NCBI GenBank assembly: GCA_964371245.1 | Contig: CAYJKP010000001.1 | Span: 123,042 to 187,041, forward strand | Reading direction: 5' to 3' | Length of the DNA: 64,000 nucleotides | Origin: an uncultured Gammaproteobacteria bacterium | Lineage (GTDB): Bacteria; Patescibacteriota; Patescibacteriia; JAHIZJ01 | Part shown: one piece after another, positions 884 through 32,260 of the stretch | Layout of the letters: each line of letters starts with the position of its first letter | How positions within the stretch are numbered: position 1 is the first letter of the stretch | Notes under the pieces: model-generated | Databases searched by the model: none | Seen by the model: the letters and a program-made list of their open reading frames with translations, nothing else | What the model was told of the DNA's origin: nothing | Program-made: the position numbers and the translations under genes

Positions 884-2701
884 ATGGAGCTAGCCGGCAC
901 ATCACCACAGTCCAAGACAGACGGCGCAGACAATCTCGCCGACCAGATCCTTGACGCACTCCAAAGTCAATCGCCAAAGCATGCGCTGACGCTGCTCTTC
1001 CAGCTCCAGGCGAAAGAACAAACGACGGCGCTGCCAGCCGATCTCCAGATACAGAAACAGCGCTTGCAAATCATTGCCATCCCGTTGCTCTCGGCCAACG
1101 AACTGGTTTCGATTTTTCAAAAAAATCTCCGTCCGGTGCTTGAATTCAACGTCGGCGATCGTTTGAAACGCCGCTTTGTGTCGTTACCGTTACGCGACCA
1201 GGACGAGCTGAAACAGAATATTCAGTCAGCCCTTGAATTAAACACACTCCCGTTTGTATCGGGCGTTGCATCTTCGCCGGCTGCCTGGATCGAACAATAC
1301 AACCTGCGACACGGCCAATACTCCGATTTTCTGAAAAATAACGTGGCCTATATTTCCCTGACGAAAGAAGAGCAGCTAAAGGTTGAGCGTCTCATGCGGT
1401 TGTACCAGCAGATTTCCGCGCTCTCCACGTCGCCGGCCGGGATAGAGGACGAGATGCTGGTGAAAGACGAGCAGGGGAAATTTCAGGTATTACGCGAAGG
1501 GCGCTTCATTGAACTGAACGCCGAGCCGGTTGAAACCCCACCGATACCAAGTTCGAACGTCCAACCAGTGCCGTCGAAACCAGCCATTTCATCGTCGCCA
1601 GTTGTGACGGTCCCGATTGCGCCGACGCTGCCACCACGACCGCCGGTCTTGCCCAGAACAGATCCGCAGAAGCCAACAACGCCGCCGATCACGCCGGTTC
1701 CACGGCCGATTATGCCGCAACCTCGCCCCAGCCCCGCGAGCCAAAACCCAACCGCTGATTTCTATTTTCACCGCGAAGACGAGGAAGAGGTAAACCGCTT
1801 CCGTACGCGGCTAGCTGATGCCACCACCCCATCTGGCGCAAATATCGAACAAATCGCCGATCGGTTGATCCGGGACTTCCGCTTAACCTTTGCTAATGAC
1901 GCGTTACGCTCGCGCTTTGTCAGCATAATCGTTTCCCGTTTGAAAGACGTGCGTGATTTGATTGAAACAAAGAGTATGCTCATGCGGCCGATCGAGGTCG
2001 GCGGTATCGGTCTGCCGGAAACACTCGTGATGCAGATACTCTCTCAGGTTGAGGAGGAAATACTCACCTTGCATAGCCGACCAGCCGAACCGATAAGCCA
2101 GGAAAAACCGCCCGAGCCGCTTCCCGTCAAACCGCGCGAGGAGCCAATTGCGCCGCCGGCTATTCAAACGCCGCCACCAGCCGCGCCAACAGTACCAGTG
2201 CGGCCACCGGTTCCGCCAAGATTGGATATACCGAAGCCAATGGCGGCAGTTCGGCCTACGCCAATTCCGCCGCGCCAAACGCTTACGAGCCAGCCAGCAA
2301 ACTCGGGTACGACCATCGTAAAGCGGCCTGTTGAGACAACGCGACCGGTTATGTCAGACATAAAACCGCCGGCCAAGACCGTCGGACCAGTTGAAGAAAT
2401 TTTTCGTCTGACCCCCGATGATTACCGCCGTCTCGGGAAGACGCTAGCCGAAGCAAACGATAAAATCGCTGAAAAACTCGATCTTTTGGAAGAGGATTCA
2501 TATCTCAAGCGGGCCGAGGGCGTAAAAGCTTGGAAGAAGAACGCCGTTCACCGACTCTATCTTGAAATCGGCCGGGAAAGCATGGAGCGGAATATGGCCA
2601 TATCGGACGTTATTCGTCAGCGTCAGGAAGCCAACCGTCCAACCGTAACCGAGGAGGAATTTCACGCCATCGCTGATTTAAATAAGCGGATAAGTTTCTA
2701 G
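884..2701 (+). CDS. hypothetical proline-rich protein
   Basis: Long ORF with strong coding asymmetry; only short, likely spurious antisense ORFs overlap it. Two long P/T/V-rich low-complexity tracts; no recognizable catalytic motif. Confidence 0.5.
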   Translation: MELAGTSPQSKTDGADNLADQILDALQSQSPKHALTLLFQLQAKEQTTALPADLQIQKQRLQIIAIPLLSANELVSIFQKNLRPVLEFNVGDRLKRRFVSLPLRDQDELKQNIQSALELNTLPFVSGVASSPAAWIEQYNLRHGQYSDFLKNNVAYISLTKEEQLKVERLMRLYQQISALSTSPAGIEDEMLVKDEQGKFQVLREGRFIELNAEPVETPPIPSSNVQPVPSKPAISSSPVVTVPIAPTLPPRPPVLPRTDPQKPTTPPITPVPRPIMPQPRPSPASQNPTADFYFHREDEEEVNRFRTRLADATTPSGANIEQIADRLIRDFRLTFANDALRSRFVSIIVSRLKDVRDLIETKSMLMRPIEVGGIGLPETLVMQILSQVEEEILTLHSRPAEPISQEKPPEPLPVKPREEPIAPPAIQTPPPAAPTVPVRPPVPPRLDIPKPMAAVRPTPIPPRQTLTSQPANSGTTIVKRPVETTRPVMSDIKPPAKTVGPVEEIFRLTPDDYRRLGKTLAEANDKIAEKLDLLEEDSYLKRAEGVKAWKKNAVHRLYLEIGRESMERNMAISDVIRQRQEANRPTVTEEEFHAIADLNKRISF

Positions 2702-2707
2702 GGAAGT

Positions 2708-3163
2708 ATGCCACTTCAATTCACCGTGCCACAATTTATCGATGTTGAAGACAAGATCTTTGGTCCGATCTCGGTCCGTCAATTCGTTATTATCCTAATC
2801 GGGATCGGTGTGGTCGTGATGCTGTATTTCGTGTTAACATTTACATTGTTTATCTTTGCCGCTCCGATCGCCTGCGGCGTGATCGCCATCTTTGCCTTTT
2901 TTAAGATAAATGGCCAGCATTTTCACCTTTTTCTCCTCAACGTTGCGACCACCTTCCGTCGTCCGCGCATCAAGCTTTGGCACAAACATTTAGCCGATGA
3001 CGAGATTCAAGAGGAAAAAGCGAAAGAAAAGGTCGGTTCCGAAGGCGGCGGACCGCCGAAGATTACACCGACAAAAAGTCGTCTTCGCGAACTTTCCTTG
3101 ATCGTCGACACGGGCGGAGCCTATGGCGAGGAATCCTGGCAGGTGACGCGCGATACCCGATAG
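2708..3163 (+). CDS. PrgI/VirB3-like small T4SS membrane protein
   Basis: N-terminal motif (IDVEDKIFGPISVRQFVIILIG) followed by two TM helices is typical of Gram-positive PrgI-family (VirB3-like) proteins. It sits immediately upstream of VirB4. Confidence 0.55.
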   Translation: MPLQFTVPQFIDVEDKIFGPISVRQFVIILIGIGVVVMLYFVLTFTLFIFAAPIACGVIAIFAFFKINGQHFHLFLLNVATTFRRPRIKLWHKHLADDEIQEEKAKEKVGSEGGGPPKITPTKSRLRELSLIVDTGGAYGEESWQVTRDTR

Positions 3164-3176
3164 CTAACAAACATAC

Positions 3177-3860
3177 ATGCCTACCCCACAGAACAAACAG
3201 CGTAAAAACACCCCTTCGACTCAGCGGTTCGTACCGATCGCTGAAATTAAAGACGACGCCGTGATCTTAAAAGACGGGACAATTCGAGGCGTCATCCTGG
3301 TTTCATCGATCAATTTTGCTCTGAAGTCGGAAGACGAACAAAACGCCATCATCCAGGCCTATACCCAATTTCTCAACTCATTTGAATTTCCGGTGCAGGT
3401 GGTGATTCAATCGCGGAAACTTGATATTGATGAATATCTCCAGCGGCTCGAGAAGGTCGAAAAGGAGCAGATGAACGAATTATTAAAAATGCAGACTCGC
3501 GAATACCGCCAGTTTGTAAATGAATTGATTGAATTGGCCGATATCATGAGCAAGCGTTTCTATGTCATTGTTCCGTATGCGCCGGTGACGAAAAAATCTT
3601 CAAAAAAGTTTTTTGACCGGGTTCAAGAATTATTTGCGCCCAGCCGGATTATTCAATTGAAAAAAAGCCAATTTGAAAAATACCATACCGAACTGGCCAA
3701 GCGGGTTGATTTCTTGATCAGCGGCTTGAACGCCATGGGCTTGAAGGCCGTTGGTCTCGACACGCAGAGCCTGATTGAACTGTATTACAATACGTATAAT
3801 CCAGAAACCTACGACCATCAAGAATTGGTCCAGGTTGATCGTATTCAAGTGGAGCGTTAA
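3177..3860 (+). CDS. VirB4 N-terminal domain-like protein; appears to be the detached N-terminal domain of the downstream VirB4 ATPase
   Basis: Motif 'FVPIAEIKDDAVILKDGTIRGVILVSSINFALKSEDEQNAIIQAYTQFLNSF...VQVVIQSRKLDIDEYL' resembles the N-terminal region of Gram-positive VirB4/TcpF/TraE-type ATPases. Stop TAA at 3858-3860, then one nt, then ATG of the next ORF, with GGAG 7 nt upstream. Confidence 0.5.
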   Translation: MPTPQNKQRKNTPSTQRFVPIAEIKDDAVILKDGTIRGVILVSSINFALKSEDEQNAIIQAYTQFLNSFEFPVQVVIQSRKLDIDEYLQRLEKVEKEQMNELLKMQTREYRQFVNELIELADIMSKRFYVIVPYAPVTKKSSKKFFDRVQELFAPSRIIQLKKSQFEKYHTELAKRVDFLISGLNAMGLKAVGLDTQSLIELYYNTYNPETYDHQELVQVDRIQVER

Positions 3861-3861
3861 T

Positions 3862-5787
3862 ATGGCAAACCTCGATCTCTCGAAAAAACAAGCCGTCGTA
3901 CCAGAGGCAACCCAGGCCAAGGTCATTTTAACGCCGCAACAAAAACGCGAGGCGGAGGCGTTAGCCATGGAGCGTGAGAAACGCGCGATCGAAGTAGAGC
4001 GGATCTACCGCGAAGGCGTGGTGACCATCCGAGATCTGATTGCTCCATCATCTTTCCGGGTGATGCCGTCGTACGTCGAGTTGGGCAGCAAATTTGTCCG
4101 GACGCTGTTTGTGGTGACCTACCCGCGCTACCTCACGGTCGGCTGGTTCGCGCCGATTGTCAATCTTAATTTCACGCTCGATATTGCGATGTATTTCTAT
4201 CCGATCAGCTCCGATATCATCCTGAAGCAATTACGGAACAAAGTCGGCGCGCTCGAAGCGCAAATTATGGCCGACGCCGAAAAGGGAGCGGCGCGCGATC
4301 CGATGCGGGAGACCGCCCTGCGCGACATTGAAAAATTGCGCGATGATCTGACGCAAGGGACAGAGAAGTTCTTTCAATTTTCCCTCTACATGACGCTGTA
4401 TGCGGATTCACTCAAGGAATTAAATGAATTGACGGATCGAGTCGAAGGCATGCTCGGTTCGCGCCTCGTCTATTCGAAGCGGGTGTTTTACCAGGCGGAA
4501 CAGGGCTATAATTCCACCCTGCCCATGGCGATCGATGAGATCAATGTGACCTTTAACATGAACACCTCGCCGGCCGCCTCGTCCTTCCCGTTTATTTCGT
4601 CCGAGCTGACGAGCGACAACGGAATTCTCTACGGCATCAACCGCCACAATAACAGCTTGATCTTATTTGACCGCTTCAGTCTTCAGAACGCCAATTCGTG
4701 CGTTTTTGCGACCTCAGGCGCTGGCAAAAGTTACGCGGTCAAGCTCGAAGTGCTCCGCAGCCTGATGCTTGGAACGGACGTTATCATTATTGACCCAGAA
4801 AAGGAATATAAGTATCTCTGCGACGCCGTCGGCGGAGCCTACGTCAACATCTATCTCAACTCGGACTCAAAGATAAATCCGTTTGATTTACCGAGACCGG
4901 TCGGGGAAGCCGATCGACCGGCCGATATCATCCGTTCGGCCGTGATCACCTTAAAAGGGCTGCTTCGCTTGATGCTCGGCGAATTTACGCACGAGGAAGA
5001 TTCGCTCGTCGACCGGGCACTGATCGAAACCTACGCCAAGAAAGACATCACAGCCGATTCCGACCTAACGAAAATCGAGGCGCCGCTTATGTCCGATTTC
5101 GAAGAGGTGCTCGGTGGCATGGAGGGCGGTGACGGGTTGGTCAAGCGGCTGAAGAAATTCACCGAGGGAACGTTTGCCGGCTTGTTCAACAGCCCGACGA
5201 ACATCGACGTGAAAAACCAGCTAGTTGTGTTCAGCGTGCGGGACCTTGAGGATGAGCTGCGTCCGATCGCCATTTACACCATCGTCAATTATATCTGGAA
5301 CGTTGTCCGGTCGGAAATGAAGAAACGGATTATGGTCATCGATGAGGCGTGGTGGCTAATGCAGAACGAAGATTCAGCCAAATTCATCTACGCACTGGTC
5401 AAGCGCTGCCGCAAATATTATCTCGGGGTGACGACGATCACGCAGGATGTCAACGACTTCTTGCGATCACCGTATGGCCAGGCCATTGTCACGAACTCGT
5501 CATTGCAGCTTTTACTCAAACAGTCGCCGGCTGGTGTCGATATTTTGGCGAAAACATTCTTGCTGACGGAAGGCGAAAAATATTTGCTGCTGGAAAGTGG
5601 GGTTGGCGAGGGGATATTCTTTGCCGGTTCCCGCCATGCCGCCATAAAAGTTGTTGCCTCGTACACGGAAGATCAAATCATTACCTCGGATCCAAAGCAG
5701 CTGCTCGAGATAGAAGCCGCGAAGAAGGAGTTTGCCGAATCGATGGCCCAAGAGGAAGACGTAAAGTCAGCCGCACCAAAACCATAA
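3862..5787 (+). CDS. virB4: VirB4/TraE-family T4SS ATPase (AAA-like, DUF87-type), C-terminal two-thirds
   Basis: 'RDLIAPSSFRVMPSYVELGSKFVRTLFVVTYPRYLTVGWFAPIVNL' is the conserved Gram-positive VirB4 segment. Walker A FATSGAGKSYAV, Walker B VIDEAWWLM, and 'TQDVNDF' are present. The ORF-track start at 3775 is an upstream extension; ATG 3862 with an RBS is preferred. Confidence 0.8.
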   Translation: MANLDLSKKQAVVPEATQAKVILTPQQKREAEALAMEREKRAIEVERIYREGVVTIRDLIAPSSFRVMPSYVELGSKFVRTLFVVTYPRYLTVGWFAPIVNLNFTLDIAMYFYPISSDIILKQLRNKVGALEAQIMADAEKGAARDPMRETALRDIEKLRDDLTQGTEKFFQFSLYMTLYADSLKELNELTDRVEGMLGSRLVYSKRVFYQAEQGYNSTLPMAIDEINVTFNMNTSPAASSFPFISSELTSDNGILYGINRHNNSLILFDRFSLQNANSCVFATSGAGKSYAVKLEVLRSLMLGTDVIIIDPEKEYKYLCDAVGGAYVNIYLNSDSKINPFDLPRPVGEADRPADIIRSAVITLKGLLRLMLGEFTHEEDSLVDRALIETYAKKDITADSDLTKIEAPLMSDFEEVLGGMEGGDGLVKRLKKFTEGTFAGLFNSPTNIDVKNQLVVFSVRDLEDELRPIAIYTIVNYIWNVVRSEMKKRIMVIDEAWWLMQNEDSAKFIYALVKRCRKYYLGVTTITQDVNDFLRSPYGQAIVTNSSLQLLLKQSPAGVDILAKTFLLTEGEKYLLLESGVGEGIFFAGSRHAAIKVVASYTEDQIITSDPKQLLEIEAAKKEFAESMAQEEDVKSAAPKP

Positions 5788-5816
5788 ATAACTACGTTGG
5801 TTAAAAATATTATCGT

Positions 5817-6455
5817 ATGAAAGGGTTCCGTATTCTCATCATCGTGCTTGGAGGGCTGGCCGTTCTCGCCGCCGCGGCGTTGGTGATTTTGCGATTGACG
5901 CAAAAACCGACCAATTCTAATACCAATACGAATACGCCGGTAAATAATGCAGTGGTGAATACGACGAACGAAAATACCAACACGTCGAATACAAATACAA
6001 ATACGAATACGGCGAACACCAACGCAAATACAAATACGGTTCCGAGTAATACGAATACAAACACCGGGAGTACACCCGAAGCGAATCTCAAAGGGGTCGC
6101 GCGAAGTTTTGCCGAGCGCTTCGGCACCTATTCAAACCATTCGGACTTTGAAAACATCGAGCACTTGATACCGTATATGAGCGAACGGATGAAAAAATGG
6201 GCGCAAAAGTATCTCGATGAGCAACGGGAAAAAACCGTCGATCAAAGCGTCTATTATGGCATGATTACTCGGACCATGTCGGTCAAGCAGACCAGCTACG
6301 ATTCTGACAATGGCACGGCTGAATTTCTGGTCACGGCGCAACGAAACGAATCGACCGGTACAAGCTCAAACTCAAGGATATTTTACCAAGACCTCCAGAT
6401 AAAATTTATTAAAGAGCAGTCGGTTTGGAAAGTAAACGAAGCCTGGTGGCAGTAA
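5817..6455 (+). CDS. membrane-anchored protein with Asn-Thr tandem-repeat linker and ~130-aa C-terminal domain (speculatively VirB8/NTF2-like)
   Basis: N-terminal TM (ILIIVLGGLAVLAAAALVIL), (NT)n repeats encoded by aatacgaatac-type DNA repeats, then a globular domain. Located inside the T4SS-like module. Confidence 0.5.
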   Translation: MKGFRILIIVLGGLAVLAAAALVILRLTQKPTNSNTNTNTPVNNAVVNTTNENTNTSNTNTNTNTANTNANTNTVPSNTNTNTGSTPEANLKGVARSFAERFGTYSNHSDFENIEHLIPYMSERMKKWAQKYLDEQREKTVDQSVYYGMITRTMSVKQTSYDSDNGTAEFLVTAQRNESTGTSSNSRIFYQDLQIKFIKEQSVWKVNEAWWQ

Positions 6456-6464
6456 CGGGTTGAT

Positions 6465-7181
6465 ATGGCTACGAATGGTAACAATTTTGATAACGCGCTA
6501 GGGAAATCAAAGGAGAAACAACGCGAATTGGACGATCGAACCGGTCGTTCAAAATCGAGTCAAGAAGCGCTCGATCGTCAGCTGGGACAAGATCCGAAAT
6601 CTTGGCACGATCAGCAAATTCGGCAGGGTAAAGACACGCACACAAAAGACCGATTAGCCGGTTCGATGGGCAGTTCAATCGGCGACGTCAATCAGCCGCG
6701 CGGCATTCGCGGACGGGTGACTGACAAGATGGATCGATCGATACAGGATTTTGACGCTCGTCAGGGTGTTGCTGGCGCAGCCGGAGAACGGTCGGCCGCG
6801 AAACAGCTTGGCGGTGCAAAAGCCGCTGCCATGAAAAAAGCAGCCGAAGGAGGAAGTGCTGAAGAAGTCGGCGAAGCGGCCGGCGCCGCCGCCCTGCAAG
6901 CGAAAAAAATACAGCAATTCCGGATACTCCTGATGGTTTTAAAAGGAGTCAAAATCGGCGCCGCAGCAACGGTGGTGGGGATAATCATCACGATCCTTAT
7001 CTGGGTGGCTCAGGTAATCCTCTCAAAGGTCTTTGGCAAAAAAGAGTTTGAACTCGATTTGTGGGAAAAAATAATTGCCTATCCAATTTGTTTTATTATT
7101 TTGGTCTTCGTGGTAACGCAAATTGCGGTTCTTGTCCAAGCCCTTGGCTTAGTAAGCAGTGTCGTTGATTGGATCTTCTAA
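6465..7181 (+). CDS. hypothetical membrane protein (Gly/Ala/Lys-rich N-terminal region, two C-terminal TM helices)
   Basis: ORF with two hydrophobic C-terminal helices (IGAAATVVGIIITILIWVAQVIL; IIAYPICFIILVFVVTQIAVLV). Confidence 0.45.
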   Translation: MATNGNNFDNALGKSKEKQRELDDRTGRSKSSQEALDRQLGQDPKSWHDQQIRQGKDTHTKDRLAGSMGSSIGDVNQPRGIRGRVTDKMDRSIQDFDARQGVAGAAGERSAAKQLGGAKAAAMKKAAEGGSAEEVGEAAGAAALQAKKIQQFRILLMVLKGVKIGAAATVVGIIITILIWVAQVILSKVFGKKEFELDLWEKIIAYPICFIILVFVVTQIAVLVQALGLVSSVVDWIF

Positions 7182-7208
7182 TCCCACACGGGCGTCCGCG
7201 ATGATTAC

Positions 7209-8342
7209 GTGTCAGCGAAAAAGATGTGGTATAATATAGCTATGAATAACACGGCAATAAAAAGACATAATCAGGTTCAACGGTGGTTTGGCATCCTGAT
7301 GTTGATATCGTTATTGACCGTCGCGGTGGCTATGTTTATGGCGCCGCGAGTAGCATATGGTCTAGTTCCAGATGCGGACGCTTGTGGCAAGGGCAAGGTA
7401 AAACTGAATGTTAAGCTCGGCACGACTGAGTGTATTTCTGACATTACCCAGTATACGAAGATTTTTTACAATCTCTTTATCGGGGTCATCGGCATCTTCG
7501 CTGCGGTTATGATTATGTATGCCGGTTTTCAATGGATTTCCGCCTCCGGGAATTCCCAAAAAATTGAACGGGCCAAAGACAGTTTTACGTCGGCCATTAT
7601 TGGTGTTGTGATTGCGCTCATTTCGTACGTTTTGTTGAATTTGATCAATCCTATGATCGTCAACCTGCAGCCAATCGCCCTGGAGACGATTACCGGGCAG
7701 GCGACCGTCGCGAACATGGAGCTCTGTAAAAACATGCTCGGCGATAATTGGTCGCAGCAGGTGATCAGCCCAAACGCCAGTTGCGGCGAGCCGAACAATT
7801 TAAAGGACGCGCAGGGTAAGCCGACGGGCGGTATATGTTATGGCCACGAATGCGGATCTGGCACCCAGTGCTTCAATAAAGCTGGCGTCTGGAAGTGCGA
7901 CTCACCGTATAAAAAATGTACAGATGCAAAAAAGGACCAATGCGCGGCGGTTGACACGATGCTTGAGGATCGAACGTATGGCTGTATCCAAAACACCACT
8001 GGCACGGGTGATGAAGATAAGTGTATCTATGGTCCGATCATCCCCTTAATCATCGGGCAGGGGACTGTCGGTGTCGCGCCAAACATTTATGAGCGAATTC
8101 GCTGCGAAGATTCACCTGAGAGGGACTGCTGGAAAGTAAGTGGTTCGGGAGCGACGCCAACGAAATGCGTTGATGCTGGTTTATATGGAGATTATTTTTG
8201 CACGAACTCTGAGCGGGCGGTTCAATGGGGGCAATCAGTCTGTGTTCATAAGGTTGGCAGCGACCCGCCGGAATATTACCTTTGGACTGGCGCCGCGCAA
8301 GGGGACGATATCGCCCCGGGTTTGTGTTCATCCACCCAATGA
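7209..8342 (+). CDS. VirB2/TrbC-like T4SS pilin-like protein fused to a ~230-aa cysteine-rich C-terminal domain
   Basis: Signal/TM segment, then two hydrophobic helices separated by a short polar loop (IFYNLFIGVIGIFAAVMIMYAGFQWISASGNSQKIERAKDSFTSAIIGVVIALISYVLLNLINP), typical of VirB2/TrbC pilins. Then ~26 Cys in the C-terminal extension. Confidence 0.5.
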   Translation: MSAKKMWYNIAMNNTAIKRHNQVQRWFGILMLISLLTVAVAMFMAPRVAYGLVPDADACGKGKVKLNVKLGTTECISDITQYTKIFYNLFIGVIGIFAAVMIMYAGFQWISASGNSQKIERAKDSFTSAIIGVVIALISYVLLNLINPMIVNLQPIALETITGQATVANMELCKNMLGDNWSQQVISPNASCGEPNNLKDAQGKPTGGICYGHECGSGTQCFNKAGVWKCDSPYKKCTDAKKDQCAAVDTMLEDRTYGCIQNTTGTGDEDKCIYGPIIPLIIGQGTVGVAPNIYERIRCEDSPERDCWKVSGSGATPTKCVDAGLYGDYFCTNSERAVQWGQSVCVHKVGSDPPEYYLWTGAAQGDDIAPGLCSSTQ

Positions 8343-9589
8343 TACACTCACCACAAACAAAAAAAATCCTGATTATCGCCGGCCTGGCGGTCGTTGTATT
8401 GGTCGTCGGCTTCGCCATCTATTTTTTCTTTTTCCGATCAATTTTTGAACCGACGGGCAATGGAAACACAAATGGCAATACCAACAACACCAACGACCTT
8501 AATCGTTTACCCAACATTAACGGTAATCGGAACGTAAACGTCAACACGAACGGAAACACGAACAGCGTGTCGACCCTGCCGGACATCTCTGATGTGGCGG
8601 ACGGTGGTCCGACGAAGGTTACCCCGATCATCAACAGCCGAACAAAAGACGGCGCGCCGACAAGCGATGGAACTGGCTATGTGTACTATGATCCGGCCAC
8701 GTACAAGTTTTACAAAGTACTGGCAAACGGCGAACGCGTCGAAATATCCTCAAAAGAGTTCTATGACGTTCAGAGCATTGCTTGGTCGCCTGATCGGCAG
8801 CGGGCCATCCTCAAGTATCCAGACGGCAGTAATTTGTATTACAACTTCAGCGACGGCCTCTCCGTGACGCTGCCAAAAGAAATACAGGAGCCGGAGTTTA
8901 CGGCAACTGGCAATAAAATCGCCTATAAATTTATTGGCGAACAAGAAGGACAACAATGGCTGGCAGTCTCAAACCCAGACGGCAGCGAACAGCAATTGCT
9001 TCAAGCGCTTGGCGACCGCGCCTCCCGCGTCGACGTCAACTGGTCGCCCGACGGCCAGGTGGCGGGTATTTATCGGGAGGGTACCGGCCTTGATGAAGAG
9101 GAAATATACTTTATCGGCCAGCATGGGGAAAATTTCAAATCCTTCACGGCCAAAGGCTCTGGGTTTACCAGCGCCTGGTCACCGCAAGGCGATAAACTCC
9201 TTTATAGCGTCTATAGCGCCGAGACTGATTATAAACCGACGTTAAGCATTGTTGACGCGCGCGGTGACGCGGTAGGGCTCAATAATACCGCTTTAGATCT
9301 AAACACCTGGCCGGATAAATGCACCTTCGGCGGTACCGCCCTGTATTGTGCCGTTCCGACCGATCTGGCGACCGGCGCCGGCTTATCGCGAGATAGCGCC
9401 GTCATGGCCAACGACAATTTCTACAGCATTGACCTTGCGACCGGACAGAAAACACTCCTCGCGATTCCGTACAACGGACCCGATGATATCGGGTATAGCG
9501 CAGATGGGTTGTATTTGTCGCCCGGCGAAGACGCCTTATATTTTCATAATGCGAAAAACGACAAGCTTGAAAAAATAACGCTCAAATAA
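8339..9589 (+). CDS. membrane-anchored TolB-like (PD40/WD40-like) beta-propeller repeat protein with Asn-Gly/Asn-Thr repeat linker
   Basis: Start overlaps the previous stop (ATGA). TM helix (ILIIAGLAVVVLVVGFAIYFFFF), N-rich repeats, and repeated 'WSPDGQ/WSPDRQ/WSPQGD' motifs. Confidence 0.6.
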   Translation: MIHSPQTKKILIIAGLAVVVLVVGFAIYFFFFRSIFEPTGNGNTNGNTNNTNDLNRLPNINGNRNVNVNTNGNTNSVSTLPDISDVADGGPTKVTPIINSRTKDGAPTSDGTGYVYYDPATYKFYKVLANGERVEISSKEFYDVQSIAWSPDRQRAILKYPDGSNLYYNFSDGLSVTLPKEIQEPEFTATGNKIAYKFIGEQEGQQWLAVSNPDGSEQQLLQALGDRASRVDVNWSPDGQVAGIYREGTGLDEEEIYFIGQHGENFKSFTAKGSGFTSAWSPQGDKLLYSVYSAETDYKPTLSIVDARGDAVGLNNTALDLNTWPDKCTFGGTALYCAVPTDLATGAGLSRDSAVMANDNFYSIDLATGQKTLLAIPYNGPDDIGYSADGLYLSPGEDALYFHNAKNDKLEKITLK

Positions 9590-9590
9590 T

Positions 9591-10334
9591 ATGGCTGAGA
9601 AAAAGGTAACGACCGCCCCAAAAACGAAAACCATCGTTATTGTTGTTATTGGACTGCTGGCTTTTCTCGGTTTTCTTTTTGCCTTGATCATGACCCGGTC
9701 AACAATGAACTCAATCTCGCGGCGACTGAACACGAAGGTGGTCTACGAAGGCGTCTCAGATCCGGTTGACCAGTCACAAGATGTTTTGGTAACCGCCGCG
9801 AATAAAGAAGTGAGCGGGACGCCGGAAATCCGTGACACCGATCCGGTCTTAGGAACCGCGGCTCCAAAAATCACCATCATCGAATTTGCCAGTTTCGGAT
9901 CCGGCTATTCAGCAGCGGCTCAGCCAATCGTTCAACAAATCATGGACAATTATGGCAGCGAGGTGAAGCTTGTTTTCAAGGATTATTTTAGCCAGTCTGA
10001 TGCAATGGCGAGCTTGGGAGCGAAGGCGGCTCGCTGCGCTCAAGCCCAAAACAAGTTCTGGGAGATGGAGAAACAGATTTTTCAGACCACGGATGGATTT
10101 GGGAAGTCAGACCTCGTTGATATCGCAAAAAAAATCGGGTTAACCGAAGACGCCTTCACCGCTTGCCTCGACAAAACAGAAACCGATTCCGCCGTCAGCC
10201 AGAATATCAGCGATGGCATTGAGCTTCACCTGTCCGCCGTTCCGACGTTTTTTGTCGACGACAAGGTGCTAACCGGCATCGTGACGTATGACGAATTTGA
10301 GGCACTGGTCATACAAGAACTCGAAGGAAAATAA
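9591..10334 (+). CDS. DsbA-like thioredoxin-fold protein with degenerate active site (CxxC replaced by SFGSGYS)
   Basis: N-terminal TM, then DsbA-like layout (…ITIIEFASFGSGYSAAAQP…KFWEMEKQIF…VPTFFVDDKVL). No Cys at the position where the paralog at 14987-15730 has CPAC. Confidence 0.55.
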   Translation: MAEKKVTTAPKTKTIVIVVIGLLAFLGFLFALIMTRSTMNSISRRLNTKVVYEGVSDPVDQSQDVLVTAANKEVSGTPEIRDTDPVLGTAAPKITIIEFASFGSGYSAAAQPIVQQIMDNYGSEVKLVFKDYFSQSDAMASLGAKAARCAQAQNKFWEMEKQIFQTTDGFGKSDLVDIAKKIGLTEDAFTACLDKTETDSAVSQNISDGIELHLSAVPTFFVDDKVLTGIVTYDEFEALVIQELEGK

Positions 10335-11545: not shown

Positions 11546-13627
11546 TTATTCCCAGTGAATTGATTCCTTAAACTCGCGCATTTTTTGCCTGATGTTAGGG
11601 TATCGTGTCAATTCAAAATCACGGTCAAGGATATTTTTCGCTATAGCTTGCGCTTTATTGATAATCGGAAAGTCTGTTAGTTTCGCGATTTTAAATTCTG
11701 GGAAACCAGATTGCCGTAAGCCGTAGAGTTCGCCGGCCCCGCGCATTTCCAGGTCCTTTTCCGCTAAGGCAAAGCCATTTTGCGAACCAGCAATCGCATA
11801 TAGGCGCTGCTGGGCGTTTTCATTTTCGGTTTCGGTCAAGAGGAAGCAGGAGGCTTGATGACTACCTCGGCCGACGCGGCCGCGAAACTGGTGGAGCTGA
11901 GCCAAGCCAAAGCGTTCAGCGCCTTCGATCAGCATGACCGTCGCGTTTGGCACGTCGATGCCGACTTCAATAACCGACGTTGAAACAAGTATTTGAATAG
12001 TGTTCGCCAGGAAATCGCGCATGACCTTCTCACGGCTCGGCGCCGGTAGTCGGCCGTGGAGCAGGCCGATTTTAAATTTTGGAAAAATCTTTTTTTGCAG
12101 CCGTTCATGCTCTTCGCGGGCGGATTTTACGCCGAGCTTGTCTGACGGATCAATCAGCGGGCAGATGACAAATGCCTGTCGGCCATGAGCGATTTCCTCG
12201 GCAATGAACTGATAGGTTTCCATTCGTTCGTGCGGAGGCACGATCTTTGTGAGAATCTTTTGACGGCCTTTTGGCAGTTCATCAATGACCGAAATATCCA
12301 GGTCACCATAAAAACCGAGTGCGAGCGTCCGCGGGATCGGCGTGGCAGTCAGGCTCAGAAAATGAGGGGAGGTCAACGCGCCGGTTTGTGATTTTCCGGC
12401 TAGGGCTTTCCGCTGGTCCACGCCGAAACGATGCTGTTCGTCAACCATGGCTAGGCCGAGCCGGTGAAAAGAAATTTTTTCCTGGAGCACGGCGTGGGTA
12501 CCGATCATCAGGTCGAGACGACCACTTGAAATTTTTCGGGCGAGCGTCGTCTGAGTCAACGATTTATTTGTCTGATTTGTCATTTTCAAGCTTCGGGTCA
12601 GCAGTCCGACGGTTATTTTTTCTTTTTGAAAAAGTTTGGAGAAGGTATCAAAATGCTGCCCGGCGAGAATTTCGGTCGGGGCCATGAGAACTGATTGCCA
12701 GCCCTGTTTGGCAGCATTGAGCACGGCCAGGCTGGCGACGACGGTTTTACCCGAGCCAACGTCGCCGTCCAAGAGGCGGTTCATCGGATGATTTTTTCCC
12801 ATGTCCCGTAATATTTGCCAGGCAGCGCGTCGCTGCGCGTTCGTCAGACGAAAGGGCAGACGGTCGACATATTTTTTCGTCAGCTCCTGGTTGAAGGGAA
12901 TGGCCGGAGCGGGGATGTGCTCGAGGAGGCGGCGGTTTTGGAGGGTATAGACTTGGATCGGAAAAAGCTCGTCGAATTTAAGGCGTTCGAGCGCTTTTTT
13001 TAGGAGAGAATGGTTACGCGGAAAATGAATTTCCTGGAGTGCATATTGTTCCTCCATCAGCTCGGCCTGTTTCCTGAGGGCAAAAGGGAGATAGTCAATC
13101 GTTCGACGGGCGAGTGGTCTCACTAGCTGGGCGAGAAAGCGAATCTGACGCTGGGTCAGCCGATTGGTCGTCGGATAGATGGGCACGAGCCGGCCAGTAT
13201 GGATCGCCGGTCCGGCTAATTTTTCATACGAGGGGCTGGTAAAATGCAGACCGTATTTGTCCATTTCCAGCTTGCCGGCCACAACAATATGGTCGCCCGG
13301 CGAGAAGGTTTTCAGTAAATACGGTTGATTAAACCAAATGATTTTAACTGAGCCGGTTTGGTCGCCGACAATCGCTTCGGTGATATAGAGGCGCCGGCGG
13401 AAACTCCGGCGATTCTGGATGTCCTGGATCTTCCCTTTAATCGTCACCTGCGCGCCGGGGACGAGTTTGTCGATGGTGGTAATCTTTGAAAAATCCTCAT
13501 AGCGCGACGGGAAATGATACAGAACATCTTTGGCTGTCCGGATACCAAGCGTTTTCAGGCGTTGGGCAACTGTTTTCCCAACCGAGTATAATTCCTCAGC
13601 CGGCGTATCAAATTGAATGAGTTTCAT
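11546..13627 (-). CDS. recG: ATP-dependent DNA helicase RecG
   Basis: Wedge/OB N-terminal region and SF2 helicase motifs (DVGSGKT, DEQHRFG, QLHQFRGRVGRG), 693 aa. Confidence 0.9.
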   Translation of the reverse strand: MKLIQFDTPAEELYSVGKTVAQRLKTLGIRTAKDVLYHFPSRYEDFSKITTIDKLVPGAQVTIKGKIQDIQNRRSFRRRLYITEAIVGDQTGSVKIIWFNQPYLLKTFSPGDHIVVAGKLEMDKYGLHFTSPSYEKLAGPAIHTGRLVPIYPTTNRLTQRQIRFLAQLVRPLARRTIDYLPFALRKQAELMEEQYALQEIHFPRNHSLLKKALERLKFDELFPIQVYTLQNRRLLEHIPAPAIPFNQELTKKYVDRLPFRLTNAQRRAAWQILRDMGKNHPMNRLLDGDVGSGKTVVASLAVLNAAKQGWQSVLMAPTEILAGQHFDTFSKLFQKEKITVGLLTRSLKMTNQTNKSLTQTTLARKISSGRLDLMIGTHAVLQEKISFHRLGLAMVDEQHRFGVDQRKALAGKSQTGALTSPHFLSLTATPIPRTLALGFYGDLDISVIDELPKGRQKILTKIVPPHERMETYQFIAEEIAHGRQAFVICPLIDPSDKLGVKSAREEHERLQKKIFPKFKIGLLHGRLPAPSREKVMRDFLANTIQILVSTSVIEVGIDVPNATVMLIEGAERFGLAQLHQFRGRVGRGSHQASCFLLTETENENAQQRLYAIAGSQNGFALAEKDLEMRGAGELYGLRQSGFPEFKIAKLTDFPIINKAQAIAKNILDRDFELTRYPNIRQKMREFKESIHWE

Positions 13628-16313: not shown

Positions 16314-17054
16314 TTACTGTTTTGATCGGGCAAACACGACACCCCAGACTTTTCCGGCGCCAGCCTTACGAAGCGTCTGGGCGCAGGCCTCAAGCGTGGC
16401 GAGCGTTGTGGCCACATCATCAATAAGTATAACGGTTTGACCAGATATGACAACCCCTCGTTTGACCCGGATGGCGGCCGTCAGATTGGCTAAACGTTCA
16501 GCGCGCGCCAACTGAGCTTGCGGGCTCGTATAATAGGCGCGGCTGAGTATATCAGTTCGTACGGGCCAGTCAAGCGCCTGTCCAAAAGCCCTGGCGATCG
16601 TCTCGGCTTGATTAAAGCCACGTTCGTTTTTTCGTTGCCAATGAAGGGGGATCGGGATTACAACCGGTTTTTGATTGGCTGTGTCAATGGCCAGCCGCTG
16701 CGTTGTTATGGCCGAGGCGATCTCTTGTCCGAGGGACACGCCAAGTTCTTCAATGAACCGGTATTTCAGGGCGTGAACGCAGGTTTGGATAAGAGGTTGT
16801 TGATAATCAGCCCGGACGAATAAACCAGCAAGCGAAGTTTTATGCGAGCAATCAGGACAGGTCAAGTACGACGCTTGCGGCCGGCGACATACGGGGCACT
16901 CAGGCTGGGGGATAGGTCCGATGCGTTTTCGGCAGTCGTCGCACAGCCAACGGTCGTAACGGCCACACCCGCCGACGCAGCGGATCGGGAAAATGCAATC
17001 GAGAACGAGTTGCCAATAACGCCGAAGTGTTTTCGCGTACATAAAAAGGCGCAT
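16314..17054 (-). CDS. comFC: ComF family protein (competence protein ComFC; double zinc-ribbon + phosphoribosyltransferase-like domain)
   Basis: N-terminal CxxC...CxxC pairs (CPVCRRP, CPDCSH), C-terminal PRTase-like 'VILIDDVATTLATL'. Confidence 0.75.
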   Translation of the reverse strand: MRLFMYAKTLRRYWQLVLDCIFPIRCVGGCGRYDRWLCDDCRKRIGPIPQPECPVCRRPQASYLTCPDCSHKTSLAGLFVRADYQQPLIQTCVHALKYRFIEELGVSLGQEIASAITTQRLAIDTANQKPVVIPIPLHWQRKNERGFNQAETIARAFGQALDWPVRTDILSRAYYTSPQAQLARAERLANLTAAIRVKRGVVISGQTVILIDDVATTLATLEACAQTLRKAGAGKVWGVVFARSKQ

Positions 17055-21228: not shown

Positions 21229-24200
21229 ATGAAAATGGTAGGGAAACTCATAAGGAATCTTTTGCGAAAAAAGATTTTTTATTTTGGCATTGTGGCAATA
21301 ATTCTCGGACTATCATTTTGCCATTACGCATTTATCCGCTCCGCCCAGGCCGCGCCACAGTGCACATCATCGTCAATGCCAGGTGATCCGTGGGGCGGCG
21401 ATGGCGTCCATTTTTTCTATAGCGCTACGCCAACCAGTCTGATTGTCGGCCGGCCAGACGCAGTAATCGAAATCGACAGTTGCAACATGCACGAGCCAGA
21501 CAGTCCGCCAAATCGAGGTTGGAACCGATACCTACTCAGAAGGGTCGGGACGACTGGGCCGGATCTCGAAGCTCAGTACGGGTATGGTGGTGGACAGAAC
21601 TTGACCATTAGTTTTGATCTTTCGAGCGTGGCGCCTGGGTATTACAATCTCATCCACTACTATTCGAATAAAACAAGTTATATTCCCGAGGTGTGGAATC
21701 CAGGAAGCGACGGTCAGGAGCTGCCTGATTATCCAGCTGGCCCCAATGAATACTATGACGCCCCACACGTTCCAGTGGGTGATTACCATCCAAAAGTTGT
21801 TTACAATCGACAAATCTTGGTTTATTCGCCGGCAATAGTCGGCTGGGGCTGGTTTGGCGCGGCCACGCCGGGTGATACCAGTTGTCGTGATTCGCGCGGC
21901 CAGCCGTATCCCTGCGGTTCGCCTGCCTGGATGAGCTTGAATTGTTTGAGCGACACCATCGGCGGGACCAGCCGCAACCGATGCTATGACGCAGTCGACA
22001 ACCCAACTGGGGTTGATTATGGTTTGAGTTTGTTTTATGACATGGATCATTTCAGTATCCGCGGCCAAGCCTGGCTCGGCATCCATAGCGATAATGATTC
22101 AAATCCAGCAAATAATACCGGAATTGGCTGGGCAAGTTTTGATCCGACCATTGATCAAGGTAATGCCTATTATGCGGTTCCGACGCTCGCTGGCACGACC
22201 GCGACACAAGCCAGTTACAATGAAGACACGGGCGCGGTCTATGGCTGGGCTCGGATACGAACGCTCCAAGAAGAGGGGGTGAATACCCGCTGTTCAACGA
22301 CCACGCGTGATTGGAGCGACGTACCGATTAGTTTGTTGGGCAGTCTCAATGGTCTCTCTAGCCACCTCGTTGAAGCATCAGACCGCACAGTCCATGCGAC
22401 CTGGGTCGGGCCAGGTCCGGATCAGTCCATCTATTATGATTATCTGACCGGCGGTTCATGGCTGGCAAACCCGATCAATCTATCGAATATTGTGGGTGGA
22501 GAAACGGGTAACTCAGCTCCTGATATCGCAGTCGAGTCTGACGGAACAGTCTACGTATCATATATACACCAAGGGACCGATATACGCGTGTTTTCGTGCA
22601 GTTCGAGTTGCGACGATACAGCGAATTGGTCCTATACCAATGCGGTTACGGGCGTGGTTGGTTTAACAGACCAGTCGCTTGCCACGACAAAGGATTTTAG
22701 CCGCACAATCTATGTCTATTACCAATTAAACAATGAAGTATACATTGTTACCAGCCAAGACGGTAGCGCCTGGACCGGTCCGGAAAACATATCAAATTCT
22801 GGGACAGCTTCCTGGCCTCGTCTGGCCGTTGATTTTCAGGATAATGTCCACGTCGTCTGGCAAGCCGGATCAAATATCTACTATCGGAAATACACAAACG
22901 GCTCTGGCTGGTCGCCGGATTTATCCTCACCAGGCACACAAGTAAACGTACTTGGCGCCAGCGCTCATCCAGCCATCGCGGTTGATCCTGAAGCCAATCC
23001 TCACATCGTGTATGAAACTGCCGCGAATATTGTGTATCGGAAACACACCCCAATCGGCGGATGGTATTCGGAAATACAAGTGAGCAGTGGCACGAGCGAT
23101 ACCAATCCGATCATCGCCTATGGAAATGATTACCGGGTGCATATTCTGTATCTCGACAACGACCACGCTCCCAACAAGAAAATCCTATACACCGAATCAA
23201 CCAACGGCAAAGACTGGTCTGTGCCAAATCCAGTCTATGATGAAAACACAGTCGATCAATTGTCCCCCGATGCAATCGTGACAAAGGATAATTATGTTCA
23301 GGCGCTTTTTAGCCGGCCGGGCGATGTGATCCATCAAACCGTGTCCACCGGCAGCTTTGGCGACTCCTGCACAGCGCCAAGTCCAACTGACGTGTCCGGA
23401 ACGGACTGGGGCTGGGTAAGCCTCCGTGGCGGACTGGGCATGTGTGGTGCCGCGCAATGCGCCACTCCCCAAGATTATGCCGACGTTCTCGAAACAATCG
23501 GTCCAGGTTTCCGGAGTTGTTTTGCCTGTGATGAAACGGCCAAGTCCTGCAAAATCTGCGAAGTCCTCGATAAGGATTATGGCGCTCCCAGCGCGACGAA
23601 CCCGCCGCGCTATGCCTGTAATGTCTGTACGGCTTGCGGAAAATGCGAAAATCAGCCGGCCATATCTTGCTATGATGATACGCCGTGTAATGGCGGGAGC
23701 TGCGTGATTAATAATAAATGCTCACGCACGGGGGTGGCGTGTGATCAAGAGAACCCGTGTGAGTGGACTGAAGGCGAAAAGAACGAATGTGTCCCGGCCT
23801 GTGCGTCTTGCGATTCTTGTAATATCTGGGGCGTATCGATCGATGGTGATCTTGCGACGGGCGCAAATTTTCACGGCTATGGCTGGTCAGCCGGCGGGAC
23901 AGTAGATATCACTGGTCAGCCCGGTTCGTATAATTCTGGAGACGTCGATTCAGCCTATAATTTAACATTGGCCGGAGCATGTACCAGCTCAAATGATTGC
24001 GTTGCTGGCGGCTGGGCGATAAATAATCCAGCTAATCCGAACTTTAATACAGCCGGGCAGTTGTGCGGTAAGGATGCAGACTTTGGTCTGGCGGGTGGAA
24101 CACTCGACGGTTGGGGTGCTTGTCAGGTTCGCGGGCCAGGGGCGTTGACCAAGTATTTCACCAAAGACATCCCGATCACCCAGGCTGGCAACTATTTCAT

Positions 24201-25476
24201 ATCACTTAACGCGATCTTCGATGCCTCGGTGAACGAAAATGTGGTTATCGAAATACTTGATAACGCGACTGATGGAAATATTATCAAAACCTTAACTTCG
24301 GCCGATCTGAATAACGTCGGAAAGGTCCGTAAAACGTGCACCTTCCCGAACGAGGTCTATCTCGAACCAGGCAATTTATTGCGCCTTAAGTCGTCAAATG
24401 ACGTTGATACCGAAATCGATTCTTTTCAGCTTACCAGCCTGCCGGTCAGCGACTTGAACTGCGAGCTGAACAATGAGTTGACCGAGGTATATGTCGATGA
24501 GGTCGGATTCGGCTTCATGGATTATAGCAACGTGTCTACACTCGACCCGTGGGTACAGACGCAATATGGCAATATTTATTCAGGCGGGGCAGTTGGTCCG
24601 GGCGGCGGAGCGCCAGCCGGAGCCATGAACTCGACCTATATCATTGGCACGGCCGCAGGTGCAGGAATTGATAGCAGCTGGATTGCTCCAATCATCCGGG
24701 AAGGCACGGAAACGACATTCGGGCTACCATCGGCCGAGCATAATTATCGAAACCCGCTCGGAAAAATACCGTATGCAGAGCTAAGCAAACCAGCCGGTAG
24801 TAATCCCTACAGCGACCGCGTGATCGAGTATAATAGTGAGACGGCACCGGCCTGCGACCCAGTCACTCATAATATCTCCTGGGGCCAGGTAAAGGACAAC
24901 ATCATACCGCCCAACGGAAAGGGTCCGTTACGAAAAGGGGTCTATCATTTTGGACGCATTGATGATCCCTGCAATCTCGTTATTAATCAAGAAATGGAAC
25001 TTGAAAACGGCAATAATGAGAATGGCGCAGGAACCTTCTTAATTGAGGGTGACCTGATTGTTGACGCCAACATCTCGGTTAAAGAAACCGGTAATCAGAT
25101 AGATGTCATTAGCGAACTCGCCTCAGCTGGGTTCATTGTAAAGGGGAATGTTAAAATAAAAGGTACGGTCACCGAGATGGTCGGCGCCTATGCCGTAATC
25201 GGCTGTGATAATGTCGGCGGAAACTGCCAGGGCGATCCGTCAAGCCATGTTGGTTTGTTTGATACGGCATATGACTCCGATGCGTCAACCGATCAATTCA
25301 AGCTGTATGGCGTGGTTATTGCATATCGCTATGATTTTGGACGGAAGTATTCTGGTCTGGAAGGCGCCGAGGTCTTCACGAATAACGGCGTTCTCCAAGC
25401 CAATCCTCCGCCGGGATTTGTGGATATTTCAACTGCCACGAAGATTTCGGCCGAAAGACCGTTTACCACCCCCTAA
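21229..25476 (+). CDS. very large secreted/surface protein with Asp-box (BNR-like) beta-propeller repeats and a Cys-rich central region
   Basis: Signal/TM at the N-terminus. Repeated 'hVxW...IYYRKxTxxxGWS' units with Asp-box-like motifs (SQDGSAWT, STNGKDWS). A ~300-aa stretch contains >35 Cys. 1415 aa. Confidence 0.7.
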   Translation: MKMVGKLIRNLLRKKIFYFGIVAIILGLSFCHYAFIRSAQAAPQCTSSSMPGDPWGGDGVHFFYSATPTSLIVGRPDAVIEIDSCNMHEPDSPPNRGWNRYLLRRVGTTGPDLEAQYGYGGGQNLTISFDLSSVAPGYYNLIHYYSNKTSYIPEVWNPGSDGQELPDYPAGPNEYYDAPHVPVGDYHPKVVYNRQILVYSPAIVGWGWFGAATPGDTSCRDSRGQPYPCGSPAWMSLNCLSDTIGGTSRNRCYDAVDNPTGVDYGLSLFYDMDHFSIRGQAWLGIHSDNDSNPANNTGIGWASFDPTIDQGNAYYAVPTLAGTTATQASYNEDTGAVYGWARIRTLQEEGVNTRCSTTTRDWSDVPISLLGSLNGLSSHLVEASDRTVHATWVGPGPDQSIYYDYLTGGSWLANPINLSNIVGGETGNSAPDIAVESDGTVYVSYIHQGTDIRVFSCSSSCDDTANWSYTNAVTGVVGLTDQSLATTKDFSRTIYVYYQLNNEVYIVTSQDGSAWTGPENISNSGTASWPRLAVDFQDNVHVVWQAGSNIYYRKYTNGSGWSPDLSSPGTQVNVLGASAHPAIAVDPEANPHIVYETAANIVYRKHTPIGGWYSEIQVSSGTSDTNPIIAYGNDYRVHILYLDNDHAPNKKILYTESTNGKDWSVPNPVYDENTVDQLSPDAIVTKDNYVQALFSRPGDVIHQTVSTGSFGDSCTAPSPTDVSGTDWGWVSLRGGLGMCGAAQCATPQDYADVLETIGPGFRSCFACDETAKSCKICEVLDKDYGAPSATNPPRYACNVCTACGKCENQPAISCYDDTPCNGGSCVINNKCSRTGVACDQENPCEWTEGEKNECVPACASCDSCNIWGVSIDGDLATGANFHGYGWSAGGTVDITGQPGSYNSGDVDSAYNLTLAGACTSSNDCVAGGWAINNPANPNFNTAGQLCGKDADFGLAGGTLDGWGACQVRGPGALTKYFTKDIPITQAGNYFISLNAIFDASVNENVVIEILDNATDGNIIKTLTSADLNNVGKVRKTCTFPNEVYLEPGNLLRLKSSNDVDTEIDSFQLTSLPVSDLNCELNNELTEVYVDEVGFGFMDYSNVSTLDPWVQTQYGNIYSGGAVGPGGGAPAGAMNSTYIIGTAAGAGIDSSWIAPIIREGTETTFGLPSAEHNYRNPLGKIPYAELSKPAGSNPYSDRVIEYNSETAPACDPVTHNISWGQVKDNIIPPNGKGPLRKGVYHFGRIDDPCNLVINQEMELENGNNENGAGTFLIEGDLIVDANISVKETGNQIDVISELASAGFIVKGNVKIKGTVTEMVGAYAVIGCDNVGGNCQGDPSSHVGLFDTAYDSDASTDQFKLYGVVIAYRYDFGRKYSGLEGAEVFTNNGVLQANPPPGFVDISTATKISAERPFTTP

Positions 25477-26720: not shown

Positions 26721-26729
26721 AAAAAACCT

Positions 26730-27905: not shown

Positions 27906-27909
27906 TACC

Positions 27910-28620: not shown

Positions 28621-28638
28621 TTGGAGGAGGTTTAAACT

Positions 28639-28956: not shown

Positions 28957-28970
28957 TACATCGCAAACAC

Positions 28971-30737: not shown

Positions 30738-30749
30738 TCGTTCATCCGT

Positions 30750-31175: not shown

Positions 31176-31180
31176 AAACC

Positions 31181-32257: not shown

Positions 32258-32260
32258 CCT

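Follow-up and report, generated by a model that had tools for sequence, protein, structure and literature searches.

A two-gene VirB4 in a chromosomal type IV secretion operon of the Patescibacteria type

Results

We analyzed a 64-kb stretch of DNA (the window), part of a 918-kb contig, and found that it carries a chromosomal type IV secretion system (T4SS) operon typical of Patescibacteria (the candidate phyla radiation, CPR) and akin to the conjugation systems of monoderm bacteria (MPF_FATA), in which the VirB4 ATPase is specified by two adjacent genes, one for a 227-amino-acid (aa) TrsD-like protein and one for a 641-aa ATPase body. The explanation that best accounts for the whole, and that we hold with considerable confidence, is that this is a Patescibacteria-type machine for host interaction whose VirB4 became two-gene by an old fission, such that the two pieces would rebuild one protomer.

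Nine genes, all on the + strand, are packed within 884-10334 (window coordinates are used throughout), with intergenic distances of -4 to 60 nt, in the order 605-aa protein, PrgI, TrsD-like protein, VirB4, VirB8-like protein, small protein with several transmembrane (TM) segments, VirB2-like pilin, anchored propeller-like protein, and DsbA-like protein. A scan for promoters and terminators inside the operon gave nothing above chance and no convincing internal terminators. An earlier reading of the sequence (the original prediction) had described a Gram-positive-type T4SS module at 2708-9589. The family assignments support the Gram-positive (monoderm, MPF_FATA) type, and all of the open reading frames (ORFs) that it listed are present on the + strand at or near the coordinates claimed. 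Its account of the content of 2708-9589 thus stands, but its boundaries do not, as the module extends from the 605-aa gene (884-2701) through the DsbA-like gene (9591-10334). As a comparison set we used 80 related loci, each from a different GTDB species, with TrsD-like proteins 51-80% identical to that of the window; essentially all of them keep the order 605-aa protein, PrgI, TrsD-like protein, VirB4, 212-aa protein.

The two VirB4 proteins

The larger ORF (3862-5787, +, 641 aa) matched the NCBIfam model for CD1110-type VirB4 with an E value of 8e-107 and a score of 358 bits, exceeding the cutoff of 325 on its own. It also matched PF19044, AAA_10, and DUF87 in a Pfam scan and, in a search of PDB sequences, the VirB4 C-terminal domain structure 4ag5 over residues 249-608 (E 4e-49) and TrwK (E 5e-8). 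Walker A (ATSGAGKS) lies at residues 283-290 (nt 4708-4731) and Walker B (IMVIDEAW) at residues 490-497 (nt 5329-5352), and the segment DLIAPSSF lies at residues 58-65 (nt 4033-4056), so that the suggestion that this ORF is the rest of VirB4, carrying these motifs, was upheld. To judge from these matches, the 641-aa protein is the second half of the VirB4 N-terminal domain followed by the P-loop C-terminal domain. The locus thus has the P-loop domain with Walker A and B motifs and the adjoining VirB3-type partner (PrgI) expected of a VirB4, and a complete N-terminal domain is obtained only when the two ORFs are taken together. The window VirB4 is 54-87% identical to its homologues in 78 Patescibacteria-type loci from metagenome-assembled genomes and 25-27% identical to VirB4s of Firmicutes plasmids, values that are strongly suggestive of membership in the monophyletic Patescibacteria VirB4 clade. 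That clade is nested in MPF_FATA (PMC12102498).

The partner is encoded directly upstream (3177-3860, +). The original prediction held that this 227-aa ORF looks like the N-terminal domain of VirB4, and several lines of evidence agree that its sequence is that of a VirB4 N terminus. In NCBIfam it matched VirB4 models only at their N-terminal parts (for VirB4_plasma, positions 95-265 of 894, E 1e-14), together with the TrsD/TraD model (positions 10-163 of 201). BLASTP aligned it with residues 34-121 of the single-chain, 818-aa VirB4 of L. paracasei plasmid pBD-II (E 1e-9), an alignment for which hhalign gave an E value of 1.6e-5. When its AlphaFold2 (AF2) model was compared with the PDB by Foldseek, 12 of the 14 top matches were TrwK/VirB4 chains of the R388 T4SS, with probabilities of up to 1.0, and some relatives are naturally fused to VirB4, as described below. 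What did not stand is the idea that the ORF is the whole domain: the cut falls inside the N-terminal domain, at about residue 185-230 of ~800, and not where the N- and C-terminal domains meet.

The link to VirB4 was made on the basis of NCBIfam, BLAST against fused proteins, and the fold search. A search of PDB sequences returned chance-level matches only, and Pfam-A hmmscan reported nothing above noise, not even PF26593 at E <= 0.1. In precomputed tables, PF26593 (Pfam “TraC-like”) is on record for this exact protein and for all 120 of its best homologues, and it appears that the Pfam copy that was scanned, or its thresholds, differ from the precomputed annotation. The best place for the 227-aa protein is in PF26593, with plasmid TrsD as a distant relation. 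A protein of ~200-230 aa between a VirB3-like gene and a short VirB4, the layout of TrsD, is what the window shows.

The family is large. There are more than 7,800 homologue clusters, the best 120 homologues all being 206-250 aa long, and an exhaustive search of 1.84 billion representatives returned 2,664 relatives. Among the best 150 of these (representatives at 50% identity), 148 are short and not fused, with a median length of 236 aa, and 2 are full-length fusions.

The gene upstream of the pair (2708-3163, +), for which a PrgI/VirB3-like product had been proposed, indeed encodes a PrgI family protein, the equivalent of VirB3: PF12666 was matched with 39.7 bits against a gathering cutoff of 27 (E 7e-10). 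PrgI is the membrane anchor for VirB4, and a hydropathy scan placed its hydrophobic stretch at residues 17-69. It ends 13 nt 5' of the TrsD-like gene, and PrgI lies 5' of the TrsD-like gene wherever the related contigs reach that far.

Alignment to full-length VirB4

When the two proteins were placed on full-length VirB4s, as the original prediction had advised, they were colinear and complementary and did not overlap. On NCBIfam models, the 227-aa and 641-aa ORFs covered positions 3-140 and 170-729 of CD1110 (752 positions), 95-265 and 277-893 of VirB4_plasma (894), and 2-184 and 212-729 of VirB4_CagE (792). On the pBD-II VirB4, the larger ORF aligned with residues 228-772 (E 2e-60), downstream of the segment matched by the smaller one.

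The same arrangement was seen on the two full-length fusions. In P0296 (797 aa; L090:544-2937) the window ORFs aligned with residues 6-214 and 213-791, and in P0289 (898 aa; L087:5001-7697) with residues 9-218 and 282-890. PrgI is directly upstream of both, and the C-terminal parts of both are 50-51% identical to the window VirB4, which is well within the Patescibacteria similarity range. P0289 was found on five contigs, and the three of these that are shown come from three different sequencing runs. The P0296 gene adjoins yidC, rnpA, dnaA, and dnaN, that is, a replication origin. A tblastn search of plasmids with the 227-aa protein likewise found two kinds of target, stand-alone genes between PrgI and a short DUF87 ATPase and the N termini of single-chain proteins annotated “VirB4-like, CD1110 family.”

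These comparisons showed that the 227-aa and 641-aa sequences are complementary to each other and colinear with single-chain VirB4s, and both are strongly conserved. Complementary, nonoverlapping coordinates are the signature of a fission and not of a duplication, and on this evidence TrsD and the short VirB4 each represent one of two complementary halves of an ancestral protein. The competing account by duplication, in which the TrsD-like protein acts on its own as an accessory factor (a regulator, for example, or a chaperone for assembly) and derives from a copy of the VirB4 N terminus, and the 641-aa protein is a complete short VirB4, seems to us improbable. It could draw on the 48 of the 150 TrsD-like representatives that are 271-450 aa long, with extra C-terminal extensions, and on the Gracilibacteria, whose TrsD homologues are mostly not next to virB4 (PMC12102498). 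Against it, the 641-aa protein lacks the segment matched by TrsD, the coordinates are complementary on three models and three fused proteins, in natural fusions from the same clade the two pieces follow each other as expected, and the order VirB3-TrsD-VirB4 holds in every locus that has all three genes.

The gene junction

The junction between the two genes (GGAG-CGT-TAA-T-ATG, 3851-3864, +) reads ...GTGGAGCGT TAA T ATG..., with the TrsD-like stop codon at 3858-3860, a single base, and the VirB4 ATG at 3862, 7 nt downstream of a Shine-Dalgarno-like GGAG. This is exactly the junction that the original prediction had described. We compared it across the related loci, 77 of which could be evaluated (L010 was excluded because of a spurious early stop) and 76 of which could be used for spacing (L070 has no ATG start in range); spacer lengths are approximate, as the VirB4 start was taken as the first ATG. 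In all 77 species loci, the TrsD-like ORF stops and VirB4 is a separate ORF, and all three frame relations between the two occur. The spacing is -20 to +16 nt in 52 of the 76 loci, including seven TAATG overlaps, and 27-240 nt in the other 24. Tight spacing is therefore frequent but not obligatory, and translational coupling is plausible in this genome without being a defining property of the system. We also considered a programmed frameshift or readthrough giving a fused VirB4 and rejected it, because the orthologues occur in three frame relations and some have long spacers.

Chromosomal setting

The original prediction had recognized no relaxase, VirD4, or VirB6. In line with this and with published surveys, a family scan of the module genes (884-10334) and of 20 of the largest ORFs beyond 16 kb found no relaxase, VirD4, VirB6, or integrase among the ORFs scanned. 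A conjugative T4SS is recognized by a relaxase together with a VirD4/TcpA-type coupling protein, and this combination is missing from the scanned ORFs of the window. It is very unlikely that the module is part of an integrative and conjugative element (ICE) that transfers DNA and has its relaxase and coupling protein outside the window. The closest non-CPR relatives are indeed conjugative systems (pSK41, CTn2-type elements, and Mycoplasma ICEs), and ABY1 loci are located near comF and recG, both of which would suit such an element. The features that speak against an ICE, besides the missing relaxase, VirD4, and integrase, are a base composition equal to that of the flanks (GC 0.508 in the module versus 0.510 in the rest of the window), housekeeping flanks that are syntenic, together with the locus, across dozens of species, and a published survey that found just 109 relaxases in 3,035 genomes, rarely near virB4 (PMC12102498).

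The chance that the split is an artifact or a recent decay, with a single-chain virB4 broken by a new frameshift or by an indel introduced in sequencing or assembly, is close to nil: only one base separates stop and start, and single-chain VirB4s are known in a few Patescibacteria, but the identical 227-aa and 641-aa pair recurs in 23 contigs (ENA and Logan assemblies among them) that represent at least three samples, the 77 loci of other species are all split, in three relative frames and with spacers of up to 240 nt, conservation of both products is high (the TrsD-like alignment has 48 invariant columns, and the VirB4 identities are given above), and the 641-aa ORF has its own ATG behind GGAG. 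The 23 contigs and the 77 split loci thus rule out, as far as assembled sequence allows, the frameshift or assembly error that the original prediction had left open, and the comparison of orthologous loci that it had called for confirms a genuine two-polypeptide VirB4.

The window also contains recG (11546-13627) and a ComF-like gene (16314-17054), so that the locus looks like a standard one of the ABY1 type, in which comF and recG are commonly found (PMC12102498); its class is probably ABY1. The window further holds housekeeping genes and a type IV pilus cluster (25596-38887). The latter comprises genes for a PilM-like protein (25596-26720), the PilB ATPase (28971-30737), a response-regulator receiver (30750-31175), a PilT-like ATPase (31181-32257), PilC (32261-33469), and a prepilin peptidase (38126-38887), with several unassigned ORFs between the recognized genes. 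Just 5' of this cluster is a 1,415-aa ORF (21229-25476) that matched no Pfam family at E <= 0.001.

Other genes of the operon

VirB4 is followed directly, in the window and in almost every one of the 80 related loci, by the gene for a 212-aa protein (5817-6455, +) that gave no sequence-family match in Pfam or NCBIfam. Its AF2 model consists of a TM helix (residues 3-28), a disordered Asn/Thr-rich linker (29-83), and an NTF2/VirB8-like domain (87-211), with pLDDT values of 82-97 for blocks over residues 91-212. The top Foldseek match in the PDB was CagV/VirB8 (6iqt, E 2e-5), and further matches were to PrgL (7aed), TrwG/VirB8 (8rtd_Y), TcpC (3ub1), TraM (3wz3), TraH (5aiw), and Brucella VirB8 (2bhm), the T4SS matches being interleaved with NTF2-like folds from outside T4SSs (ARC6, RsgI9, and Tim44) over E values of 2e-5 to 4e-3. 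We therefore predict from the model that the 212-aa protein is a bitopic VirB8-like T4SS component.

The next gene (6465-7181, +) encodes a 238-aa protein that likewise matched no Pfam or NCBIfam family. A hydropathy scan showed a hydrophilic N-terminal part of ~150 aa and a C-terminal hydrophobic region with two to four TM segments. Of 18 related loci that were inspected, 12 have a multi-TM protein of 190-390 aa at the same place. The 238-aa protein is too small to be called VirB6.

The proposed VirB2-like pilin (7242-8342, +) was confirmed by a match to PF18895 above the gathering score (E 3e-10). The gene call gives 366 aa, and an alternative GTG start at 7209 would give 377 aa. The best NCBIfam match was the pilin-like protein Mbov_0395 of a Mycoplasma ICE (E 2e-8), whose score of 34 bits is just below the 40-bit cutoff. 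A signal-peptide-like N terminus and a two-helix pilin hairpin are followed by a C-terminal domain of ~225 aa that carries 16 of the 18 cysteines. A sequence search with this Cys-rich domain found three clusters, all fused to PF18895, and the domain appears to evolve fast.

The gene that follows the pilin more likely starts at 8339, overlapping the pilin stop codon, than at 8282, and then (8339-9589, +) encodes a 416-aa protein with a TM segment at residues 4-38, which would make it an N-terminally membrane-anchored beta-propeller-like protein. The original prediction had called it a TolB-like propeller. A generic, weak PD40-like beta-propeller signal is present, as is a TolB-propeller match (E 6e-6), but its identity as TolB was not borne out: it scored 25.4 bits against the TIGR02800 cutoff of 343, and no Tol-Pal genes are present around it. 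One nucleotide further on, and syntenic in many related loci, is the gene for a membrane-anchored DsbA/thioredoxin-like protein (9591-10334, +, 247 aa; PF13462, E 1e-21; PF01323, E 3e-14), which is probably the disulfide catalyst for the Cys-rich pilin domain. Twelve of the 18 inspected loci contain the submodule as a whole, namely, a VirB8-like protein, a multi-TM protein, a Cys-rich pilin (10-27 Cys), an anchored protein of ~415 aa with a single TM segment, and a DsbA-like protein.

The first gene of the operon (884-2701, +) ends 6 nt 5' of PrgI and encodes the 605-aa protein, which is Pro-rich, has no TM segment, and is apparently cytoplasmic. A tblastn survey of the 80 species loci placed it directly 5' of PrgI in 75, and in most of the others the contig ends first. 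Conservation is good only in the C-terminal ~120 aa. The single sequence matched nothing in Pfam, NCBIfam, or the PDB sequences, and a profile of 34 sequences gave no significant Pfam or PDB match, its best match being GpsB with an E value of 0.19, which we treated as noise. The 605-aa protein may be a T4SS component that has not yet been characterized.

Discussion

We propose that an old gene fission inside the N-terminal domain of VirB4 gave rise to two genes, whose products would supply the first ~200 residues (the TrsD-like protein) and the remainder of the N-terminal domain together with the P-loop ATPase domain (the 641-aa protein). The two polypeptides are expected to associate into a complete VirB4 protomer. 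In R388, the N-terminal domain of VirB4 (residues 15-400 in TrwK) is wrapped by VirB3 (PMC9259494). For this reason, the TrsD part is likely to be the PrgI-proximal and membrane-proximal subdomain, which would lie next to the membrane in contact with PrgI/VirB3, like its counterpart in R388. In this genome, the GGAG and the one-base spacer between stop and start would favor equimolar, coupled synthesis of the two parts. The hexameric ATPase, together with the VirB8-like protein, the pilin, and accessory envelope proteins, would then build a VirB2-type pilus or channel, and we favor a use of this pilus or channel in host interaction rather than in conjugation because there is no relaxase or coupling protein nearby.

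Several points weigh against this proposal. The score of the 227-aa protein for the TrsD/TraD model NF041427 is 27.3 bits against a cutoff of 200, and the structural match to TrwK comes from an AF2 model of medium confidence (pLDDT 73.5), with modest Foldseek E values (from 3e-3) and a query-normalized TM-score of 0.39. The 24 loci with long spacers mean that translational coupling cannot be essential. The association of the TrsD-like protein with the 641-aa protein and its contact with PrgI, where these are read as binding, we infer from the comparisons, and a pilus or host-interaction function would be extrapolated from other T4SSs and from genetics in Saccharimonadia, outside this lineage. 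Genes for VirB6 and VirD4 could also lie outside the 64-kb window.

A bolder form of the proposal would make the fission functional. A free TrsD-like adaptor would sit on PrgI/VirB3 at the membrane and the ATPase body would dock on it reversibly, as a switch of assembly or activity, and in this ABY1-type lineage the pilus, whose VirB2-like subunit would display a disulfide-rich adhesin domain matured by the DsbA-like protein and the propeller, would serve in attachment to the host. We regard this as doubtful. If it were true, Patescibacteria and pGO1-type T4SSs would own a switch that single-chain VirB4 machines lack.

T4SS genes have been reported to be essential for epibiotic growth in the sole genetically tractable Patescibacterium, S. 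epibionticum, in which a relaxase or coupling protein is not recognizable (Wang et al. 2023, PMC10633639), and the essential genes include that for the TrsD homologue (PMC12102498). A remote homology of TrsD to the VirB4 N terminus has been published (PMC12102498); the word TrsD does not occur in the main text of Guglielmini et al. 2014. What is added here is that this remote homology is made concrete: VirB4 is cut where it is cut in staphylococcal pSK41, natural fusions that occur rarely within the clade link the TrsD and VirB4 pieces, and we offer the hypothesis that TrsD is the subdomain of VirB4 that lies nearest VirB3. The system itself is not of a new kind. For annotation, a “truncated” 640-aa VirB4 behind a hypothetical protein of ~225 aa is normal in CPR genomes and does not call for a pseudogene label.

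Comparison with known systems

One of the systems compared is that of R388. Its TrwK/VirB4 (PDB 7o41 and 8rtb) shares the P-loop C-terminal domain and provides the best matches to the TrsD-like model, and the 212-aa model matches its TrwG/VirB8. It differs in being a diderm system with an outer-membrane core complex and a single-chain VirB4 of 823 aa, and identity in the structural alignments is ~9-15%. The single-chain VirB4s of MPF_FATA (the CD1110 family, with pBD-II at 818 aa, and the Mycoplasma ICE family of Mbov_0397 at 894 aa) have the same domains in the same order, and in pBD-II PrgI is directly upstream of VirB4, as in the window. Unlike the window VirB4, these are one polypeptide, and they belong to conjugative elements with VirD4 and a relaxase.

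The layout of the window is shared by the pGO1/pSK41 trs operon. On pSK41 (NC_005024), trsC (VirB3-like), trsD (227 aa), and trsE (672 aa, a short VirB4) follow one another in the order seen in the window, and the split point is the same, with TrsE residue 36 (DSIYPFSW) aligning with window VirB4 residue 58 (DLIAPSSF). TrsD matches the TrsD-like protein with an E value of 1e-7 and TrsE matches the window VirB4 with an E value of 2e-46, at low identities (25-29%). For two other pairs we do not claim homology, as PrgI and TrsC gave a pairwise E value of just 0.026 and BLAST found no similarity between the pilin and TrsB (“CagC family”). pSK41 differs in being a conjugative plasmid with a relaxase, the VirD4-like TrsK, and a CHAP hydrolase. 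The Brevibacillus halotolerans megaplasmid CP139434 has the same split (L084, 14490-17758), with PrgI, a 332-aa TrsD-like protein, and a 635-aa DUF87 ATPase, so that a VirB4 made from two genes is not confined to CPR and plasmids of the pGO1 type. Genes near this locus specify an A24 prepilin-type peptidase and a TlpA disulfide reductase, and the record is typed “non-mobilizable.”

The closest counterpart is the Patescibacteria-clade T4SS itself (PMC12102498; S. epibionticum SEML1_0006-0019, PMC10633639). Published Patescibacteria T4SSs have PrgI and VirB2-like PF18895 pilins, VirB8 is scarce in them and mostly found in ABY1, and relaxases are scarce (PMC12102498). The window shares with them a chromosomal locus, PrgI/VirB3, a TrsD homologue and a PF18895 pilin near virB4, a VirB8-like component, the recG and comF neighborhood of ABY1, and surroundings in which no relaxase or coupling protein was found among the ORFs scanned. 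Neither an array of pilin genes nor a VirB6 homologue was seen here, but there are no essential differences. The 605-aa upstream gene, the Cys-rich domain of the pilin, and the propeller-DsbA pair are not mentioned in the main text of PMC12102498. As for the original prediction, the split of VirB4 is real, but other genomes have it too, and the small protein has been named before, as TrsD. Patescibacteria have 2,272 TrsD homologues, 1,664 of which adjoin virB4 (Quinonero-Coronel et al. 2025, PMC12102498). The two-gene VirB4 is thus already published and lineage-wide, and both the Patescibacteria VirB4 clade and plasmids of the pGO1/pSK41 type have it as a rule.

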